UHGV virus genome: UHGV-0306691
Source of the DNA: a virus
Length of the DNA: 11,944 bases
Strand: one strand, 5' to 3'
Shown here piece after piece: positions 1-10,812 of this stretch; positions within the stretch are counted from its first letter, which is position 1; the number at the start of each line of letters is the position of its first letter. Made by a program: the position numbers and the translations under genes. The notes beneath the pieces are model-generated. The model was not told the origin of the DNA. It did not search any database and saw only the letters and a list, made by a program, of their open reading frames with translations.

Positions 1-263
1 GGGGGATTACCAAAGGCAGCACCTTTAAGCTCCGCAAGACGTTCAGACCAGTCATGCGCCAGCGCGTTGTCTTCCGCAGTGTAATAAGCGGCACATTTGG
101 CGTTATCACCATCAGTGAACAGATCCAGAACAAACGGGCCAAACAGGGTGTTAATTCCCCAGAAAATGTTGTCCGGCGTGCGCCACTGATCGCCCACTTC
201 CTTCAGTTCATGGGCTGGTTTGTTCCGCAGCTCCACCAGCGCCTGGCAATATTTATTACTCAT
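1..263 (-). CDS. Phage Dam-type N6-adenine DNA methyltransferase, N-terminal part (gene continues beyond window start)
   Basis: Reverse-strand translation from ATG (complement of 261-263) gives MSNKYCQALVELRNKPAHELKEVGDQWRTPDNIFWGINTLFGPFVLDLFTDGDNAKCAAYYTAEDNALAHDWSERLAELKGAAFGNPPY..., with the W-x-TP motif and the (D/N)PPY catalytic motif of N6-adenine MTases. Start ATG overlaps the stop of the upstream gene (TAATG). No stop in window, so absent from the ORF track. Confidence 0.6.
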   Translation of the reverse strand, partial: MSNKYCQALVELRNKPAHELKEVGDQWRTPDNIFWGINTLFGPFVLDLFTDGDNAKCAAYYTAEDNALAHDWSERLAELKGAAFGNP

Positions 264-753: not shown

Positions 754-1746
754 TCACCCCCTGAATCCTGCCGGGATCTGGCTGTAGTCCACGTTGTCGT
801 AACTGGCTTTGAAGTACGGGTCTTCATGTTTTTCTGTGTGCGTGCTGACGGACGGCGATAAGCGCAGGGAAAGCTCATCCCATTTTTCCCGCAACTTCGA
901 CGGGCTGAGCACGTTACGGCACCAGAACGGATCGCGGCTGACGCGGCTGTACATCTCGCAGATTTGTTTGTGAGTACGACCATCCTGCACACACATCAGG
1001 CGAATTTCGTTTGCCCATGCTGTCCAGTTCGGTTCTTTGGGACGAACCACCTCGCCGTCACATTCGGCGGCCTGCTCGTACAGGGCGATGATTTTTTTCC
1101 AGAGCCACTGTGCGCAGGTCAAATCATCCTGCGTTCCCCACTGGCGCTTTTTAGGGCTGAATACAACCGCATCAGGATGGCGAGTTAAAAACTCCTGTTC
1201 AGCCGTTTGCGTGTCCGGTTGCGAAGCGTCCGGACGAGAAGAGGTTTTATTCTCTGTAGTAATCTCTGTTGTATTCTCTGTAAGATCATTGGGCCATTTT
1301 GACCCGATGACAGCGTGTCGTTTTGAACCAATGGATCGTGTCATTTTGCGCCCATCCATCAGGTCACTTTGACCCGATGGAGAAGTGCATTTTGACCTGA
1401 TGGATTCGTTCACTTTGACCTCTTCTAAAAGCTCACTTTCATAGTTGATCGTGTAGAAGTTGGTCATGTCACGCTTCGATTTATTGAGTTGCTCGCGACG
1501 CAAAACCCCAAGTGATTTCAGGCTTGCAAATGTGCGTTTCAGAGTGGACTCTGACCAGAACGGAAACTGCTCCAGCCACTGTTCTGTCGTGTTATAAACC
1601 CAGCGAATTCCGCCATGCTCAGTGCCTGAATTCGTTTCATTCAGCCAGTAATGAAGCTGCTGCAACACAATTGCCTCATTCAGACCAATACGGCATGCAA
1701 GATCACGATTTATCACAATGGGCTGGGATGTCATTAACAGGCTCAT
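754..1746 (-). CDS. Replication initiation protein, lambda O-like (ori iterons inside the coding sequence)
   Basis: 330-aa ORF, RBS GAGGT 5 nt upstream of ATG. Position after cro/CII-like genes and six ~17-bp direct repeats at ~23-bp spacing inside the gene (1295-1420) are the hallmark of lambdoid O genes. Low-complexity linker with codon repeats (TENTTEITTEN). Confidence 0.75.
   Translation of the reverse strand: MSLLMTSQPIVINRDLACRIGLNEAIVLQQLHYWLNETNSGTEHGGIRWVYNTTEQWLEQFPFWSESTLKRTFASLKSLGVLRREQLNKSKRDMTNFYTINYESELLEEVKVNESIRSKCTSPSGQSDLMDGRKMTRSIGSKRHAVIGSKWPNDLTENTTEITTENKTSSRPDASQPDTQTAEQEFLTRHPDAVVFSPKKRQWGTQDDLTCAQWLWKKIIALYEQAAECDGEVVRPKEPNWTAWANEIRLMCVQDGRTHKQICEMYSRVSRDPFWCRNVLSPSKLREKWDELSLRLSPSVSTHTEKHEDPYFKASYDNVDYSQIPAGFRG
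1295..1420. repeat. Origin of replication iterons: six direct repeats, consensus ~CAyTTTGACCnGATGGA, period 23-24 bp
   Basis: Copies start at 1295, 1319, 1342, 1365, 1388 and 1411 (last one partial): cattttgacccgatga / cgttttgaaccaatgga / cattttgcgcccatcca / cactttgacccgatgga / cattttgacctgatgga / cactttgacc. Followed by a moderately AT-rich stretch 1421-1500. Lies inside the O-like gene, as in lambda ori. Confidence 0.65.
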
Positions 1747-3056: not shown

Positions 3057-3743
3057 GTGAAAACATTGGCAGATAGACTAAAAAGCGAAAGAGAAAAAGC
3101 AGGAATGAGTCAGGCGCAACTAGCTGAAAAAATTGGACTTTCACAACAATCCGTAGCAAAAATCGAGAATGGAGAAACTCAACAGCCTCGGAAAATTAAA
3201 GAGATTGCTAAAGTGTTAGGGGTTTCTCAAAAGTGGTTGCAATTGGGCATTGAGGATAACGCGTCTTTCCCAGACCTTGTTGTAAAGGAGGCTGAAAGTA
3301 CAGCATTAGATCCTGACATTTTTGCAAACATTCCTGTCCTGGATGTCGAGTTATCAGCGGGTAATGGATGTTTGGCTGAAATAGTTGAATCAACTGTAGA
3401 CTGGTTCCCGCTAAGAAGGATTGATTTAAGAAAAGCTGGTGTATGTGTCTCCAATGCAAAGATCGTAAAAATTTGGGGTAATAGTTTACTACCTGTACTT
3501 AACAATGGAGATTTTGTTGCTGTTGATGTTTCCCAAACAGTTCCTATTCGTGATGGGGATCTTTATGCTATACGTGATGGCGTATTACTTAGAGTTAAAA
3601 TATTGATCAATTTACCTGACGGTGGTCTGATTCTAAGAAGTTTCAATAAAGATGAGTATCCAGATGAAATACTCACCTTCGAAGATAGGCGTTCCAGAAT
3701 TCACGTTATAGGTAGAGTATTCTGGTCATCGCGCACTTGGTAA
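3057..3743 (+). CDS. cI: cI-like prophage repressor (N-terminal XRE-type HTH, C-terminal LexA/S24 peptidase-like autocleavage domain)
   Basis: 228 aa, GTG start after GAGGGGG. HTH segment MSQAQLAEKIGLSQQSVAKIENGE; C-terminal domain with G-N-S (GNSLLP) and downstream Lys (LRVKIL) in the arrangement of the S24 Ser/Lys dyad. Divergent from the cro-like gene. Confidence 0.85.
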   Translation: MKTLADRLKSEREKAGMSQAQLAEKIGLSQQSVAKIENGETQQPRKIKEIAKVLGVSQKWLQLGIEDNASFPDLVVKEAESTALDPDIFANIPVLDVELSAGNGCLAEIVESTVDWFPLRRIDLRKAGVCVSNAKIVKIWGNSLLPVLNNGDFVAVDVSQTVPIRDGDLYAIRDGVLLRVKILINLPDGGLILRSFNKDEYPDEILTFEDRRSRIHVIGRVFWSSRTW

Positions 3744-5003: not shown

Positions 5004-5092
5004 ACAAAACAGAGAAGAGCATCACCGGACGACGGGCTCATAACCCAATCCACCCGGGCGGCTGCCACCGCAGGTGTTCTTCTCTGTTTTGT
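5004..5092 (+). other. Long RNA hairpin (about 20 bp stem, 49-nt internal region) immediately 3' of the DicF-like terminator; candidate RNase III processing site
   Basis: 5004-5023 (ACAAAACAGAGAAGAGCATC) pairs with 5073-5092 (GGTGTTCTTCTCTGTTTTGT) with two G-U wobbles and no mismatches; verified base by base. Located upstream of the yfdP-like start at 5141. Confidence 0.45.
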
Positions 5093-5140
5093 GGAGAAAC
5101 CAACCGACCTTGCAGGGTCGATATGATGAGGAGCAGCAAA

Positions 5141-5503
5141 ATGGCTAGCGAACGCAGTACTGATGTGCAGGCATTTATCGGGGAGCTGGACGGCGGCGTA
5201 TTTGAAACCAAAATCGGCGCAGTTCTCAGTGAAGTCGCTTCCGGTGTGATGAACACGAAAACCAAAGGTAAGGTCTCGCTCAACCTGGAAATCGAACCGT
5301 TTGATGAGAACCGTGTGAAAATCAAACACAAACTCTCATATGTTCGCCCGACTAACCGCGGGAAAATTTCCGAAGAAGACACCACCGAAACGCCGATGTA
5401 TGTCAATCGCGGTGGTCGTCTGACTATTCTGCAGGAAGACCAGGGACAATTACTGACTCTTGCCGGTGAACCTGACGGAAAACTCCGCGCAGCAGGTAAT
5501 TAA
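5141..5503 (+). CDS. Hypothetical protein, YfdP-like (120 aa)
   Basis: ATG at 5141 preceded by GAGGAG; the ORF-track extension back to 4955 covers the structured RNA region and is unlikely to be coding. Length and position upstream of a 274-aa gene match K-12 KplE1 yfdP as I recall it. Confidence 0.5.
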   Translation: MASERSTDVQAFIGELDGGVFETKIGAVLSEVASGVMNTKTKGKVSLNLEIEPFDENRVKIKHKLSYVRPTNRGKISEEDTTETPMYVNRGGRLTILQEDQGQLLTLAGEPDGKLRAAGN

Positions 5504-5568
5504 TATCGTTCTTAATTAACTGATTATTTATCTCATCACTGAATATCTTTATATAGTGAGGACTTATT

Positions 5569-6393
5569 ATGTCTCAGAACTTAGACGCAACCGCAATTAA
5601 TCAAATCCATGCCCTTATTTCTGCTCAGGGTGTTAATGAAATTATCAGTAAGATTGGTGCCGATGCAGTGGCATTGCCTGAGAATTTCCGCATTCATGAT
5701 CTGGAAAAATTTAATTTAAATCGCTTCCGTTTCCGTGGTGCGCTTTCCACTGCCAGCATCGATGACTTTACCCGTTATTCTAAAGATCTTGCAGATGAAG
5801 GCACCCGCTGCTTTATCGATGCTGATAATATGCGTGCCGTCAGTGTACTTAACCTGGGTACTATTGATGAACCAGGTCACGCAGATAACACCGCCACCCT
5901 CAAACTGAAAAAGACAGCACCGTTCTCTGCCCTGTTGTCTGTTAACGGCGAGCGTAACTCCCAGAAGTCACTGGCAGAATGGATTGAAGACTGGGCCGAC
6001 TACCTTGTGGGCTTTGATGCTAATGGTGACACCATTCAGGCAACCAAAGCGGCTGCGGCAGTCCGTAAAATCACAATTGAAGCAAACCAGACCGCTGATT
6101 TTGAAGACAATGACTTCAGCGGCAAACGCTCTCTGATGGAGTCTGTCGAAGCGAAAACCAAAGACATTATGCCAGTGGCATTTGAATTTAAATGCGTTCC
6201 GTTTGAAGGCCTGAAAGAACGTCCGTTTAAATTACGCCTCAGCATTCTCACTGGCGATCGTCCTGTACTGGTTCTGCGCATTATTCAGCTGGAAGCAGTG
6301 CAGGAGGAAATGGCTAACGAATTTCGTGATCTGCTTGTTGAGAAATTCAAAGACAGCAAAGTAGAAACCTTTATTGGTACTTTCACCGCCTGA
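5569..6393 (+). CDS. yfdQ: YfdQ-like protein (DUF2303 family), 274 aa
   Basis: Clean ORF with GAGGA SD 6 nt upstream. Length identical to K-12 YfdQ as I recall (274 aa) and followed by an HD-domain gene of YfdR length. Homology not verified. Confidence 0.55.
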
Positions 6394-6521
6394 TTTCATT
6401 ACTGCAAATGCCCCTGCGGGGGCATTTATGGAAACGTAATTAACTCAATAATCACCGGATGGTGAGAGCTTCCTTTTAGCAGAATTCAGCGCGGTGCAGC
6501 GCATATAAAGTGGAGAACGAA

Positions 6522-7058
6522 ATGTCATTTATTAAAACTTTTTCCGGGAAGCATTTTTATTATGACAAGATAAATAAAGACGACATCGTGATTAACGATA
6601 TCGCAGTTTCCCTTTCAAATATCTGTCGCTTTGCAGGACATCTTTCACACTTCTACAGTGTCGCCCAGCATGCGGTGCTTTGCAGCCAGCTGGTGCCGCA
6701 GGAATTTGCTTTTGAAGCGTTAATGCATGATGCAACAGAAGCATATTGCCAGGACATCCCCGCGCCACTGAAACGCCTTCTTCCTGACTATAAACGGATG
6801 GAAGAAAAAATAGACGCCGTAATCCGTGAGAAATACGGGTTACCTCCTGTTATGAGCACGCCAGTGAAATATGCCGATCTCATTATGCTGGCAACCGAAC
6901 GCCGTGATCTCGGGCTTGATGATGGCTCTTTCTGGCCTGTTCTGGAAGGTATCCCGGCAACAGAGATGTTCAAAGTTATTCCACTGTCGCCAGGCCATGC
7001 CTATGGGATGTTTATGGAACGTTTTAACGAGTTATCGGAGTTACGCAAATGCGCATGA
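6522..7058 (+). CDS. yfdR: HD-domain phosphohydrolase, YfdR-like 5'-deoxynucleotidase family (178 aa from ATG 6522)
   Basis: HD-domain metal-binding motifs: H in SVAQHAVLC and HD in LMHDATEAY. ATG 6522 has GGAGA at 5-nt spacing (the track start at 6510 is a GTG without better context). The 178-aa length matches K-12 YfdR as I recall. Confidence 0.65.
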   Translation: MSFIKTFSGKHFYYDKINKDDIVINDIAVSLSNICRFAGHLSHFYSVAQHAVLCSQLVPQEFAFEALMHDATEAYCQDIPAPLKRLLPDYKRMEEKIDAVIREKYGLPPVMSTPVKYADLIMLATERRDLGLDDGSFWPVLEGIPATEMFKVIPLSPGHAYGMFMERFNELSELRKCA

Positions 7059-7591
7059 ATGTTTTCGAAATGGAAGGGTTTCTTCGCGGGAAATGTGTAC
7101 CGCGAGATCTGAAAGTGAATGAAACAAATGCTGAGTATCTGGTGCGTAAATTTGCTGAAGCGGAGGCTAAGATTTCGGCGTTTGCGGCGGAGAATGAACT
7201 GGCTCGTAAGGCGGTTCAGGCATTCTGCGATGTTGTTGGCGACAACACCGAGGTTATCGCTGAGGAGGTTGGGCGAGATGGCGTTCTGGTTATTTTGGAG
7301 GCCATGAAAGTAACAGGAAATATGCCAGCCACCGACGCTTTCCTGGCTGAAATACGTGCGGAGGCACGCAACGAGGGGATTAACTACACCGCAAGCCGCC
7401 TTGCTGCCGCTTTCAACCACGGATTTATCAATAAGTCTTTACGTGAAGTTTTCGACGTTACACGCATGATTCTGTCAGCGAAAGAAGAGTTGGCTAATGA
7501 ACCGCACCCAATTGATGGCCTGTCCGGTGAATATGCGGAGAAATCCCTTGAAGAATGGGCGGAACAGATTCGCAAAGGAGTTCAGTCATGA
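7049..7591 (+). CDS. Hypothetical protein, YfdS-like (180 aa); paralog of 8095..8493
   Basis: Start overlaps the upstream gene end; stop overlaps the next start (ATGA at 7588-7591). N-terminal ~45 aa nearly identical to the product of 8095..8493 ([41 protein letters not shown] vs [42 protein letters not shown]). Confidence 0.55.
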   Translation: MRMNVFEMEGFLRGKCVPRDLKVNETNAEYLVRKFAEAEAKISAFAAENELARKAVQAFCDVVGDNTEVIAEEVGRDGVLVILEAMKVTGNMPATDAFLAEIRAEARNEGINYTASRLAAAFNHGFINKSLREVFDVTRMILSAKEELANEPHPIDGLSGEYAEKSLEEWAEQIRKGVQS

Positions 7592-7821
7592 GCATCCGAA
7601 CTGAACATGGATTTGGTCCGTCAACGGTCGAAGTCGAATGGCTTGATGATTGCCCTAAGTGCCAGCACGGCAAAGCCAAGGTAACAGGATGGTCGGTAAC
7701 CAAAGATTCTTTGTGGGCGGGTGATGAGGCCGTCTGTTCCAAATGCGGTCACAAAGGCGAAATCGATGCTGATGGAGAGAATGCCTGGGTGGAATGGGAC
7801 GAAATCGAGGAGGCACAATGA
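7588..7821 (+). CDS. Small zinc-ribbon protein (CPKC ... CSKC), 77 aa, possibly YfdT-like
   Basis: ATG 7588 overlaps the upstream stop (ATGA). Two CxxC pairs (CPKCQHG ... CSKCGHKG) suggest a zinc ribbon. Acidic C-terminus. Confidence 0.5.
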   Translation: MSIRTEHGFGPSTVEVEWLDDCPKCQHGKAKVTGWSVTKDSLWAGDEAVCSKCGHKGEIDADGENAWVEWDEIEEAQ

Positions 7822-7933
7822 GCAATATCGACCTGCCGCTCAATTTATTCAGTAAGAGCTATGCGATACAAGCTAAAAAAACTCGATGAAGAAAGAGCAG
7901 GCATACGAATAAATTAACAAAGAGGAATTTACC

Positions 7934-8098
7934 ATGAGAGGACTTGCATACAATCCCGGCATTCTTCCGGCAGAAATGATTATTCGCCAACGCGTAAAGC
8001 CAATGCCATCGAGAGAGGAATTGCTTAAGAGAAATTCTTTTCCATCAGTGAATCAAAACAAATATCTGAATGCGATGTGGCGGAGTGGTAAGAAATGA
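7934..8098 (+). CDS. Hypothetical small protein (54 aa), translationally coupled to the downstream paralog gene
   Basis: AGAGGAA SD upstream of ATG 7934; no internal stops (translated by hand: [54 protein letters not shown]); stop overlaps ATG 8095 (ATGA). Below the ORF-track size cutoff. Confidence 0.3.
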
Positions 8099-8493
8099 AA
8101 CAAATGACACTAATTGAGATGGATGGTTTTCTGAAAGGCAAATGCATCCCACGAGATTTAAAGGTTAACGAAACAAACGCTGAATATCTGGTGCGTAAAT
8201 TTGCTGAAGCGGAGGCCAAGTGCGCGGCGCTGGCTGCTGAAGTTGAGGCTGTGAAATCAGCACATCAAGATGCTGTAAACACCATCATGTATACCGCCAA
8301 TCGAACGGGTGTTTTATACACAGAGAAGGCAATTCAAATGTCCTGCAAAACCCCGGCCACCGACGCCTTCCTGGCTGAAGTGCGGGCGCAGGGGGTAGAG
8401 ATGATGCGCGAACATCCATCAATCAAACTTTGCTCTTTGACGCACATATGTGACGAGTTAGCCGCCCAGCTTCGCAAAGGAGGCAACCAGTGA
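8095..8493 (+). CDS. Hypothetical protein (132 aa), diverged paralog of 7049..7591
   Basis: Shares the N-terminal domain and an internal [10 protein letters not shown][IV]RA motif with the 180-aa protein; a 51-nt patch (8170-8220) is about 94% identical to 7121-7171. Stop overlaps the next gene start (GTGA). Confidence 0.55.
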
Positions 8494-9242
8494 GCGAGAT
8501 TAACTATCAGGCACTGCGTGAGGCGGCACAGAACGCGAAAAATTTAGGTGGGATTAAGAATTACAAGCGAGGCGAGCAAGCTGTTGCCGAATTTAAGTCC
8601 TTGATAACGCCACATATTGTGCTGGCGCTTCTGGAAGAACGGGAAAGAAACCAGCAATACATCAAAAGCCGCGACCAGGAGAACGAGGATATTGCGCTAA
8701 CGGTAGGGAAGCTGCGTGTTGAGCTTGAGGAGACAAAATCAAAACTCAACGAGCAGCGCGAGTATTACGAAGGTGTCATCTCGGATGGAAGTAAGCGCAT
8801 AGCAGAGTTGCAGACAAAATCTGCACCAGATTCGTTTGGCATCATCGGTGAAAATATTCGAACACAGGATAATCGAATAACGTCAGATCCTATGTTTTGT
8901 GTGTATCAAAAGCGCGAAATCGTTGTTGATGCTGATTATGACTATGACCGGATTGTCTGGGTTGATGAAGATGGCAATGAAGCCAATAAACTCCAAAGTC
9001 GTCGTCTCGAACTACTTCATGAAAACTTTCGGGAGCCACCAGAAAAATGGCGGCGCGTTGCTGTGAAAGATATTGATGAATTCGTTACCTGCTGTTTCAC
9101 CGAACAGGGTTGTAAAGATTACCTAGCAGTCAATGGTCACAATCTTCGATTGCCATTTATATATGTAAAAAGCGGTTTCAGGAACGCTGAATATATCGGC
9201 ATAAGAAACTGGCTTGCTGGCATTCGCATCAAAGGAGAGTGA
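8490..9242 (+). CDS. Ead/Ea22-like protein (250 aa, GTG start)
   Basis: AAGGAGG SD 6 nt upstream of GTG 8490. N-terminus (I)NYQALREAAQNA resembles the conserved N-terminus of Ead/Ea22-like prophage proteins (xIDYQALREAAE...) as I recall; a coiled-coil-like middle; position in the early-left operon is consistent with lambda ea22. Confidence 0.5.
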   Translation: MSEINYQALREAAQNAKNLGGIKNYKRGEQAVAEFKSLITPHIVLALLEERERNQQYIKSRDQENEDIALTVGKLRVELEETKSKLNEQREYYEGVISDGSKRIAELQTKSAPDSFGIIGENIRTQDNRITSDPMFCVYQKREIVVDADYDYDRIVWVDEDGNEANKLQSRRLELLHENFREPPEKWRRVAVKDIDEFVTCCFTEQGCKDYLAVNGHNLRLPFIYVKSGFRNAEYIGIRNWLAGIRIKGE

Positions 9243-9243
9243 T

Positions 9244-9531
9244 ATGGCAACTTTGCAGGAATTAATCGACCTGACGCCAGAACAGGAAAAAGCGTGGAAT
9301 CGCCTTGTGAAGGCTGTAAAGGATTTCAGGGCAGCCGGAGGAAAGTTTTATAGCGTCCTGGACACGCTGAGCGCATACAACGGCGAGCACGTTGCCAGCA
9401 TTGATAACGATAAGGGCTACCACACTGCAAGCGTCTATATGCCTAGCATTGATGCGCCAGGGCTAACCAGTTGGGCTGATGATTGGCACGGCATCACGCT
9501 GAAAGATGGCGTTGAAGTGGATGAGGACTAA
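9244..9531 (+). CDS. Hypothetical protein (95 aa)
   Basis: ATG 9244 one nt after the upstream stop, preceded by AAAGGAGAG. The ORF-track extension to 9214 overlaps the previous gene without an SD. No family recognised. Confidence 0.45.
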   Translation: MATLQELIDLTPEQEKAWNRLVKAVKDFRAAGGKFYSVLDTLSAYNGEHVASIDNDKGYHTASVYMPSIDAPGLTSWADDWHGITLKDGVEVDED

Positions 9532-10575: not shown

Positions 10576-10812
10576 ATGTCTCGACTAATCACTTTACAGG
10601 ACTGGGCTAAAGAAGAATTTGGGGACTTAGCACCAAGTGAGCGAGTTCTGAAAAAATACGCGCAAGGGAAAATGATGGCCCCACCCGCTATAAAAGTTGG
10701 TCGCTACTGGATGATTGACCGAAATTCCCGTTTTGTAGGAACGCTTGCAGAACCGCAACTCCCAATAAACGCAAACCCAAAACTCCAACGGATAATCGCT
10801 GATGGCTGCTAG
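10576..10812 (+). CDS. xis: Excisionase (lambda Xis-like)
   Basis: Strong SD AAGAGGAGG. N-terminus LITLQDWAKEE...KKYAQGKMMAPPAIKVGRYW parallels lambda Xis (LTLQEWNARQ...VRRWVRECRIFPPPVKDGREY). Overlaps the integrase start by 11 nt, as in lambda xis-int. Confidence 0.6.
   Translation: MSRLITLQDWAKEEFGDLAPSERVLKKYAQGKMMAPPAIKVGRYWMIDRNSRFVGTLAEPQLPINANPKLQRIIADGC

Follow-up and report, generated by a model that had tools for sequence, protein, structure and literature searches.

The stretch of DNA analysed here (the window; 11,944 nt) represents the accessory region on the early-left (pL) side of a lambdoid prophage from E. coli which is kin to the cryptic prophage CPS-53. Two of its genes, termed A and B, are considered below together with their neighbours and with several short tracts inside them:

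6522-7058, plus strand: yfdR-like HD-domain 5'-deoxynucleotidase gene (phrog_318; weak Pfam match to YfbR-like proteins)
7049-7591, plus strand: gene A, 180 aa, from the list of open reading frames (phrog_614); yfdS-type head, patch and Eae-type tail
7049-7120, plus strand: head allele A, codons 1-24; 71 of 72 nt identical to E. coli K-12 yfdS
7121-7171, plus strand: patch, gene A copy; encodes 17 residues at the start of a predicted long helix
7136-7167, plus strand: perfect 32-nt identity with 8185-8216, inside the patch copies
7325-7351, plus strand: PATDAFLAE island of gene A; second shared stretch and crossover joint
7566-7591, plus strand: codons of the gene A C-terminus ..QIRKGVQS, with the Shine-Dalgarno sequence AAAGGAG (7574-7580) and the ATGA overlap (7588-7591)
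7588-7821, plus strand: gene for a zinc-ribbon-like protein of 77 aa, coupled in translation to gene A (phrog_4446; weak rubredoxin-like match; gene call in locus L178)
7934-8098, plus strand: DUF2737 gene (PF10930, E = 2.6e-31), the usual neighbour upstream of head B
8095-8493, plus strand: gene B, 132 aa, from the list of open reading frames (phrog_614); head B, patch and short tail with the end ..QLRKGGNQ
8170-8220, plus strand: patch, gene B copy; the common population allele
8353-8379, plus strand: PATDAFLAE island of gene B; second shared stretch
8450-8530, plus strand: gene-boundary island, from the C-terminal codons of gene B through the Shine-Dalgarno sequence AAAGGAGG (8476-8483) and the GTGA overlap (8490-8493) into the first codons of the gene that follows
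8490-9242, plus strand: 250-aa Ead/Ea22-like gene (PF13935, E = 2.3e-28, 99.9 bits)

Downstream of genes A and B and on the same strand are xis (10576-10812) and int (from 10802). The 250-aa PF13935 gene is the third mosaic coiled-coil gene in a row after A and B. On the upstream side the segment yfdP-yfdQ-yfdR-yfdS(5') of CPS-53 from E. coli K-12 matches window positions 5122-7152 with 97% identity over about 2 kb. The homology stops at 7152. Judged by its sequence, gene A is the K-12 yfdS head joined within the patch to an Eae-type tail.

An earlier reading of this DNA, made from the sequence alone, held that both genes are stop/start coupled to their neighbours, and the codons bear this out. 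The stop codon of the yfdR-like gene (TGA, 7056-7058) overlaps the start of gene A, be it the ATG at 7049 or a conserved Met codon at 7055 which gives an ATGA overlap. The gene A stop (7589-7591) overlaps the ATG of the next gene at 7588, the DUF2737 stop (8096-8098) overlaps the gene B ATG at 8095, and the gene B stop (8491-8493) overlaps the GTG of its successor at 8490. This arrangement is a habit of the family: a 4-nt xTGA stop/start overlap ends 78 of 90 distinct family contexts, and in 76 it is ATGA or GTGA. The 3' end of the gene B type precedes at least 10 different downstream genes across loci.

Both proteins match the profile of PHROG 614 (function unknown), A with E = 7.5e-78 over residues 1-179 and B with E = 2e-51 over residues 1-108. 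Pfam searches with A and B returned no family at E <= 0.01, PF13935 included (gathering score 27 bits); NCBIfam gave no match at the same threshold, and sequence searches of the PDB gave nothing meaningful. The exact gene A protein is deposited in the E. coli records OYA30265.1 and WP_249539915.1, and the exact gene B protein is encoded on 67 contigs, every one named E. coli. The names in use vary. Relatives of gene A are called Eae protein, YfdS family or ead/Ea22-like, and the head-B gene of E. coli TUM9803 is annotated as a YfdS family phage-associated protein. Gene A can be called YfdS-type, because its head is homologous to K-12 YfdS (b2362) and it lies directly after yfdR and overlaps it. 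An AlphaFold2 prediction from an 18-sequence alignment is all-helical with a long helix at residues 25-89, at a mean pLDDT of only 50 and a pTM of 0.32, a quality too low for a fold search. By sequence comparison A and B are members of one combinatorially mosaic family (YfdS family/Eae/ead/Ea22-like), which comprises at least 7,993 protein clusters. Its members consist of a head of about 24 codons, the 17-codon patch at the opening of the long predicted helix, coiled-coil and C-terminal modules which vary and are joined around the PATDAFLAE motif, and a ..QLRKG end whose codons include the Shine-Dalgarno sequence and the start overlap with the following gene.

The sequence-only reading also described a shared N-terminal domain, a shared internal motif and a nearly identical nucleotide patch in otherwise diverged genes. 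All three are real. The motif is PATDAFLAE, preceded by M in A and by T in B, and beyond these elements a third shared island exists at the C-terminus. Overall, the genes are 58% identical over 131 aligned codons and have 68 residues in common. The ungapped N-terminal homology (7067-7191 and 8116-8240) amounts to 78% identity, yet the head codons 4-24 are identical in only 40 of 63 nt (63%), as against 48 of 51 nt (94.1%) in the patch. In a 51-nt sliding window over the codon alignment the identity is 0.94 in the patch, 0.73 in the PATDAFLAE island, 0.63 at the C-terminus and 0.31-0.47 elsewhere. Thus, divergence is anything but uniform and the plot peaks on the patch.

May such a patch arise by chance combined with protein-level constraint, i.e., as the most conserved peptide written in favoured codons? 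All 17 patch residues are identical and several codons are common ones in E. coli (CTG, GAA, AAA), as this explanation demands. The synonymous positions tell otherwise. Among codons for the same residue, 14 are identical and 3 different in the patch, against 5 identical and 14 different in the flanks (Fisher P = 0.001); the longest-run permutation gives P = 0.007 and the best 17-codon window, a post-hoc choice, P = 0.011. Under the codon usage of the window itself 6.97 identical codons are expected in the patch where 14 are observed (P = 3e-4), and codon bias as a cause is rejected by this formal test (P < 0.001). The equally conserved head residues (GFLxGKCxPRDLKVN) are synonymously saturated, with 5 of 19 codons identical against 7.45 expected, and 200 shuffles produced no pair matching the perfect 32-mer. 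Chance plus protein constraint is hardly credible.

Over 100 distinct relatives, gathered from collections of phages, genomes and metagenomes, place the two genes in context. They include two discrete head alleles, with identities of at least 90% inside a class and about 63-65% from one class to the other. Each is tied to its own upstream gene: head A is preceded by the yfdR 3' end in 44 of 44 distinct contexts, head B by the DUF2737 3' end in 60 of 63. A local duplication followed by drift is rejected, because the heads of A and B are linked to different upstream genes. The designation 'diverged paralog pair' in the sequence-only reading is therefore right only in a loose sense; two members of one shuffled family stand in series, and the part which implies duplication on the spot falls.

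Among the relatives we observe different allele combinations, variable switch points and clustered ends of homology. In single-copy loci the common patch allele (0-5 differences from that of B) follows heads A and B as well as two additional head types. The exact 51-nt allele of gene B occurs in 62 other loci, practically all of them with one copy, and the 32-mer in 87 of the fetched loci; the exact allele of gene A occurs in no other locus. Head A with the common patch allele is present in several single-copy phages (L161, L081, L082 and the L090 group). L161, the Stx2c phage EH0430, combines head A with the exact patch allele of B and has no second head copy in its 6.9-kb locus. Tails are equally mobile. 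The tail ISALSEDHQKAIESI.. is seen on head A and head B, and the tail ..ENELARKAV.. follows heads of types A, B and x, PF13935 heads and two N-termini of other kinds. In gene A the B-like tract runs past 7171 into a tail which is found on B-type and other heads (L022, L096, P0001).

Painting of 37 informative sites located the switches from a-type to b-type sequence. They are at 7135|7138 in gene A of the window, at 7117|7129 in L081, at 7129|7135 in the 11 loci of the L090 group and at about 7099|7102 in L082. The L104 group shows mixed tracts, and five B-head lineages switch from b to a at about 7156-7160. Altogether, the head-to-patch switch points occupy at least 6 positions within about 70 nt. 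The ends of BLAST HSPs, in a histogram conditional on the choice of the fetched loci by their head peptide, cluster at 7150-7179 (57 ends) and 8200-8249 (59 ends), around the PATDAFLAE island of A (starts and ends at 7320 and 7360) and of B (starts at 8340-8359, ends at 8380-8409), and at the gene-boundary island (45 starts in 8450-8479, 43 ends in 8520-8539). Many phage matches to gene A start at query bases 121-130, i.e., at window positions 7169-7178. Two loci (L112, L187) are chimeras joined at the PATDAFLAE island, and in two others (L104, L116) head A is joined to portions of the C-terminal part of the 250-aa PF13935 protein of the window. Independent lineages thus show exchanges at different crossover points in one zone, and homology end-points cluster there.

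The exact gene A protein is encoded on 7 contigs, and the full order A, 77-aa gene, DUF2737, B and Ead/Ea22 is present in 3 of the 4 places displayed, comprising one E. coli assembly from NCBI and two metagenome contigs from ENA; the fourth contig is too short. An assembly artefact is rejected, as the two-gene order recurs on several independent contigs. Of 5,426 complete E. coli genomes 3,622 match 7049-8493 in part, but not one covers 80% or more of it; draft assemblies and metagenomes do contain the arrangement. The source strain of the E. coli assembly GCA_002244065.1 is one carrier of this prophage. The patch copies are 1049 bp apart in direct orientation, so they are now a substrate for unequal exchange. 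One metagenomic contig (L177) joins window positions 7737-8216 to 7168-7628, and either part has a single mismatch. Its crossover lies inside the 32-mer and creates the B-head/A-tail junction of the two copies of the window. As a lone short metagenome contig L177 could itself be chimeric. This junction sequence had no match in IMG/VR and none in the JGI metagenomes. The A-head/B-tail junction pattern had 7 matches, all of them ordinary head-B or head-A genes; the pattern is not diagnostic because both head classes vary at 7129 and 7135. An exact look-up of two idealised chimeric proteins, including head A with tail B, the predicted reciprocal deletion product, found neither.

The sequence-only reading had suggested a recent gene conversion between A and B. 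In such an event B would have donated a tract of about 30-50 nt to A, or the reverse, inside this prophage. The spacing and direct orientation of the copies, the perfect 32-mer in common, a gene A tract (7138-7167) of B type with yfdS-type sequence on its left flank, and L177, which suggests recombination between just these two copies, are in agreement with this proposal. Yet the allele of B is the population consensus, and single-copy phages possess head A with the common patch. Further, gene A has T at 7168 where B has C, and it continues into 'AAGATTTCGGCG', a continuation also present in L022 and the P0001/L177 lineage and, save for the base at 7168, in L096. The tract of A is therefore contiguous with its own tail lineage rather than copied from B. 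The absence of the exact allele of A from all other loci also speaks against a conversion. A converted tract should differ from that of single-copy relatives; here the single-copy relatives of both genes share it. Consequently, recent intragenomic conversion is improbable.

The same reading had offered a selected nucleotide-level element as its other explanation. Candidates would be an RNA structure, the target of a regulatory RNA, a protein-binding site or a dedicated recombination 'linker'. In its favour, in all six pairwise comparisons of four head lineages, one of them Salmonella-type, the patch is less diverged than the head and is synonymously the least diverged part: 10-16 of its codons are identical and 0-6 different, whereas the head has 2-9 identical and 4-13 different codons. 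But Rfam at E <= 1 has no match in the patch (two chance miRNA matches are elsewhere), RNA folding z-scores range from 0.09 to 1.03 for both strands of both copies with none beyond the shuffles, promoter-like sites are absent from 6400-9400 and terminator-like sites are at chance level. Other alleles do vary. The K-12 yfdS patch differs from that of gene B in 8 of 14 codons for the same amino acid. This divergence equals that of the head, which shows a stretch free to vary and under no intrinsic constraint. The FGELEAK alleles likewise differ at many synonymous sites, and a Pseudocitrobacter relative has AGA AAG where the patch has CGT AAA. A scan of species-representative genomes returned 14 loci only, too few for a deep test of synonymous sites in distant taxa. 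A selected element is accordingly very unlikely. Nevertheless, recombination and nucleotide-level selection both predict a low synonymous divergence, so some extra constraint on the patch may exist beside recombination.

What has most probably shaped the patch is recombination: we are rather confident that it is a homologous or homeologous recombination joint in a mosaic phage gene family. The sharing of the patch is real, yet it is ordinary phage mosaicism and a known kind of feature. The patch would be a short shared tract between two mosaic junctions. To its left, two old head alleles, each tied to an upstream gene, appear to have been joined to one patch allele by homologous or homeologous crossovers; to its right, different tails would have been attached. 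We infer this order of events. Gene A most likely originated from a crossover at 7135-7138 between a yfdR-yfdS-type cassette and a gene composed of head B, the common patch and the ISAF..ENELARKAV tail. The enzymology may have been host RecA or Red/RecT/Erf-type annealing of phage origin on tracts of at least 30 nt. No recombinase gene was identified within the window, and no Chi site is near the patch, the three of the window being on the minus strand at 233, 2443 and 2870.

Lambdoid mosaics are known to contain 'hits' of >90% identity with 'shoulders' of 64-70%, produced by homeologous recombination (Martinsohn et al., 2008; PMC2327257). The patch looks like such a joint, a 94% tract with a 5' shoulder of 63-71% (63-65% for the head) in an unrelated background of 31-47%. 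As in most published cases there is only one shoulder (PMC2327257, PMC3945230). The minimum for Red-beta recombination is about 30 bp (De Paepe et al., 2014; PMC3945230), and the perfect 32 nt are just above it, a comparison of length only. Two properties are different. Published hits have a median of about 400-500 bp, whereas the patch has 51 nt and is intragenic; and instead of a single transferred block it behaves as a recurrent joint, reused by many independent exchanges.

A second likeness is with the Ea22/Ead proteins of PF13935. Their genes are described as mosaics, in which an N-terminal segment is followed by a coiled coil and by C-terminal domains that vary (PMC10834534), and lambda Ea22 is pro-lysogenic (PMC10834534, PMC7093339). 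Genes A and B have the same location in the pL operon upstream of xis-int (exo-xis region) and may resemble them in build, with a short N-terminal segment leading into a long helix or coiled coil and with C-terminal domains that can be interchanged. A direct link is provided by P0087-P0120, in which the tail of A is fused to PF13935 heads. Unlike Ea22/Ead, A and B have no PF13935 match and their head is a different module.

A third comparison is with K-12 YfdS in the yfdQ-yfdR-yfdS-yfdT cluster of CPS-53; the yfdS gene is reported to matter for H2O2 tolerance (PMC4776307). As there, the start of gene A overlaps the yfdR stop, and yfdP, yfdQ and yfdR are upstream. From codon 30 onward, K-12 YfdS (120 aa) has the patch allele FDALEAK and a DUF551-type tail, in contrast to the common patch and Eae-type tail of gene A (180 aa). 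The two tails are unrelated.

The idea of exchange at gene boundaries has its root in the modular theory that Susskind and Botstein put forward. For the lambdoid phages the boundary-sequence proposal is reportedly that of Clark et al. 2001 on HK620. The proposal, as cited, holds that lambdoid modules are exchanged through short conserved tracts at the borders between genes (reference 9 of PMC2327257). The boundary island of gene B (..QLRKGGNQ, AAAGGAGG, GTGA) with its many different downstream genes resembles them, and the patch has the same role intragenically. Unlike boundary sequences, two of the joints are inside a gene and coincide with conserved peptide motifs. For this reason protein function and translational coupling, rather than selection for exchange, may account for their conservation.

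One may speculate further. Head and patch together might act as a recurrent 'adaptor' which generates new head/tail combinations of an early-expressed effector family; the 32-nt direct repeat of the two copies would drive duplication or deletion and chimeric proteins, and L177 would be the first trace of it. We consider this a long shot. If true, it would amount to a low-grade diversity-generating arrangement under second-order selection, operating within a host population.

The locus reveals no new kind of element. At single-base resolution it shows lambdoid phages exchanging portions of genes, beyond whole genes, with three short conserved islands as reusable joints: the N-terminal patch, PATDAFLAE, and the C-terminal peptide with its Shine-Dalgarno sequence and overlapping start. 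For annotation this means that a single set of parts has, in its various chimeras, received the names YfdS, Eae and Ea22-like. Functional work on the exo-xis/ea region should consider that a head goes along with the gene upstream of it and a tail with the gene downstream. The family is also well suited to stress-testing assemblers and recombination detectors.

The window derives from an E. coli lambdoid prophage and spans its immunity and early-left region, with two related genes, A and B.

Gene order in the window
3057-3743, plus strand: cI-type repressor gene
between the repressor gene and the yfdQ-like gene, plus strand: yfdP-like gene
5569-6393, plus strand: yfdQ-like gene (DUF2303)
ending at 7058, plus strand: yfdR-like gene (HD phosphatase)
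7049-7591, plus strand: gene A (180 aa)
7588-7821, plus strand: zinc-ribbon gene (77 aa)
7934-8098, plus strand: DUF2737 gene
8095-8493, plus strand: gene B (132 aa)
8490-9242, plus strand: Ead_Ea22 protein gene (250 aa)
3' of the 250-aa gene: several small genes, then xis (10576-10812)
from 10802, last in the row: truncated integrase gene

The stop/start coupling of both genes to their neighbours is borne out by four of four overlaps in the sequence. The yfdP-yfdQ-yfdR-yfdS(5') segment of the K-12 cryptic prophage CPS-53 is 97% identical to window 5122-7152. Exact matches of proteins A and B are on record from E. coli. Of the four contigs displayed with an exact A protein, three have the five-gene order of the window, among them an NCBI E. 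coli assembly that is 99.8% identical over 8.5 kb. The closest genome, GCA_002244065.1 (L178), is 99.8% identical to the window as far as 9549; 3' of the 95-aa gene the sequences part ways (L178 from 8487, the window from 9535), L178 continuing with dATP/dGTP pyrophosphohydrolase+DUF551, Rv2179c-like and PyocinActivator genes, the window with small genes and then xis-int. This is a further mosaic junction in an otherwise near-identical prophage.

The near-identical 51-nt patch noticed in the sequence-only reading is confirmed. Positions 7121-7171 of A and 8170-8220 of B agree in 48 of 51 nt, including a 32-mer without mismatch (7136-7167 = 8185-8216). Sliding-window identity peaks here at 0.94; the shared internal motif PATDAFLAE reaches 0.73, the C-terminus 0.63 and the background 0.31-0.47. 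Outside the patch the shared head, i.e., the first 24 or so codons, is 63% identical. Where A and B encode the same residue, 14 codons are identical and 3 different in the patch, against 5 and 14 in the flanks (Fisher P = 0.001; run-length permutation P = 0.007). Under the codon usage of the window the patch should have 7.0 identical codons and has 14 (P = 3e-4), whereas the flanks are at or below expectation. Protein constraint combined with codon bias is therefore insufficient, and is ruled out as an explanation of the patch.

No support was found for a selected nucleotide-level element, as had been proposed, and such an element is improbable. The patch has no Rfam match and no promoter, terminator-like sites are no more frequent than by chance, and folding energies of both strands of both copies do not differ noticeably from those of shuffles. 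Synonymous-site divergence is lowest in the patch for every pair among four head lineages, which recurrent exchange or constraint would produce alike. The K-12 yfdS patch differs from that of B at 8 of 14 same-residue codons, a divergence as large as that between the heads of A and B (10 of 14 codons), and a Pseudocitrobacter relative has AGA AAG in place of CGT AAA. Thus, the stretch is free to vary, and the shared patch is one allele spread by exchange.

We retrieved 160 of the >580 IMG/VR loci in which the head peptide is encoded, together with 14 from species-representative genomes and several that were annotated or exact matches; 106 distinct ORFs were compared for head, patch and tail. 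Every fetched IMG/VR locus, with 3 kb on each side, has a single copy; of these sources, only the window has two. Codons 1-24 fall into two discrete alleles. Head A has at least 92% identity to A of the window and about 65% to B, and follows directly on the 3' end of yfdR in 44 of 44 cases; head B follows that of DUF2737 in 60 of 63. Two more head types exist (L096 and L137), the former matching protein P0074, named from Salmonella by its sources. All four head types are followed by the common patch allele, which differs from B's copy at 0-5 positions. In the alternative alleles, FDALEAK (K-12 yfdS type) and FGELEAK, 9-17 of the 51 positions are different. Identical tails recur on different heads: the ..ENELARKAV.. 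tail of A is also joined to head B, the Salmonella-type head, PF13935 heads and two unrelated N-termini, and other tails include an HNH-like domain and the C-terminal portion of the 250-aa protein encoded in the window itself. Segment 7049-8493 has partial matches in 3,622 of 5,426 complete E. coli genomes, in up to 6 places per genome, and is present as a whole in none of the 5,426; this demonstrates how finely ea-region genes are shuffled.

Painting of 37 sites which separate K-12 yfdS-type (a) from common head-B sequence (b) uncovered clean switches, the position of which differs by lineage.

Switch points between a and b sequence (window coordinates)
gene A of the window: between 7135 and 7138
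L081: between 7117 and 7129
L090 group (11 loci): between 7129 and 7135
L082: between about 7099 and 7102
L104 group: mixed a/b tracts
five head-B lineages: b-to-a switches near 7156-7160

BLAST against window 6500-9300 gave 279 distinct HSPs, whose end-points cluster in four places. There are 57 ends in 7150-7179 and 59 in 8200-8249; end-points cluster at both PATDAFLAE islands, and the gene boundary 8450-8530 has 45 starts and 43 ends. Many matches of gene A in a public phage collection start at query bases 121-130, where the patch ends on its 3' side. At PATDAFLAE, L112 joins another middle segment to the C-terminal half of A, and L187 joins head A and an A-type middle to a B-type C-terminus. 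The family genes end in an ATGA or GTGA overlap in 76 of 90 distinct contexts, and a shared ..QLRKG C-terminal end precedes at least 10 different downstream genes. In yfdS-type genes of E. coli ECMA0423 (L174) and Shigella flexneri SFBU1023 (L175) unrelated sequence lies upstream of ..KVNETDAEY.., with the junction at the 5' edge of the patch; these may be truncated or fused pseudogenes.

How did gene A acquire its patch? Its 51-nt allele as a whole is unique, yfdS-type as far as 7135 and common-type from 7138. 3' of the patch it reads GGCTAAGATTTCGGCG, matching L022 and P0001/L177, lineages which bear other heads. Most simply, a crossover within the patch would have produced it, one parent being a cassette of the yfdR-yfdS type and the other a gene with head B, the common patch and an ISAF tail. 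Gene conversion by the neighbouring copy, as suggested earlier, need not be invoked and is improbable: the allele of B is the population consensus, exact in 62 other loci, and the Stx2c phage L161 combines head A with B's exact patch, having one head copy within its 6.9-kb locus.

The best protein match to A, P0001, consists of head B and the tail of A. Its sole contig, L177 (ENA ERZ27227884 k141_35389; 941 nt, metagenomic), fuses window 7737-8216 to 7168-7628, each side having one mismatch (SNP) and the switch point lying inside the perfect 32-mer. Along the contig come the zinc-ribbon 3' end, a spacer, DUF2737, head B, the patch, tail A and the zinc-ribbon 5' end; the 1049-bp unit lying between the patch repeats is thus circularly permuted. 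Such a junction would be expected if the prophage lineage had undergone unequal crossing-over (tandem duplication) or if the unit had been excised as a circle; it is only suggestive because L177 is one short, possibly chimeric contig. L179 and L180, from samples with adjacent ENA accession numbers, have the window's own arrangement. The reciprocal deletion product (head A and tail B) was not found by exact protein look-up.

The patch is probably a known kind of lambdoid recombination joint. It shows the 'hit with shoulder' pattern described for homeologous recombination of lambdoid phages (PMC2327257), and its 32-nt perfect identity is close to the 30-bp minimum quoted for Red-beta (PMC3945230). 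It differs from published cases only in scale and reuse, being a 51-nt intragenic tract used in many independent exchanges. That it is a recurrent adaptor which, once duplicated in one operon, goes on generating chimeras appears doubtful to us. Chi sites (GCTGGTGG) occur three times in the window (233-240, 2443-2450, 2870-2877; shuffles predict 0.24), all minus-strand on the pR/replication side; the scan of the window found none near the patch.

A and B match phrog_614 and no Pfam or NCBIfam model; relatives are annotated as YfdS family, Eae or ead/Ea22-like, and a function can be putatively assigned by family only. Published work on the neighbourhood reports that yfdQRS or yfdQRT, when overexpressed, inhibits the initiation of replication, that YfdR binds DnaA and that mutants of yfdS are sensitive to H2O2 (PMC4776307). 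Ea22 has been described as a mosaic with a short N-terminal segment followed by a coiled coil and by C-terminal domains that can be interchanged (PMC10834534). A and B appear similarly built, their helices being predicted: the AlphaFold2 model is all-helical with a long helix (residues 25-89) starting at the patch, at a mean pLDDT of only 50.

Other repeats are present. The 13-mer AATGAAACAAATG occurs out of frame at 7118-7130 (N-E-T-N codons), where A's patch begins, and at 8094-8106, the start of gene B (ATG AAA CAA ATG). This is probably chance because its first T is C in other head-A genes. In A it starts an out-of-frame ORF of 62 codons (7119-7307). Inverted repeats at 5004-5092 (25-nt arms with 84% complementarity and a spacing of 39 nt; upstream of the yfdP-like ORF or within its start) and 6393-6440 (22-nt arms, spacing 4 nt; immediately 3' of the yfdQ-like gene) are possible operator or terminator-like hairpins. 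Four 23-nt direct repeats (CATyrGGyCAyTTTGACCCGATG-like; 1287-1402) within a 330-aa replication-initiator-like gene (754-1746, minus strand) look like the origin iterons of a lambda O-type gene.
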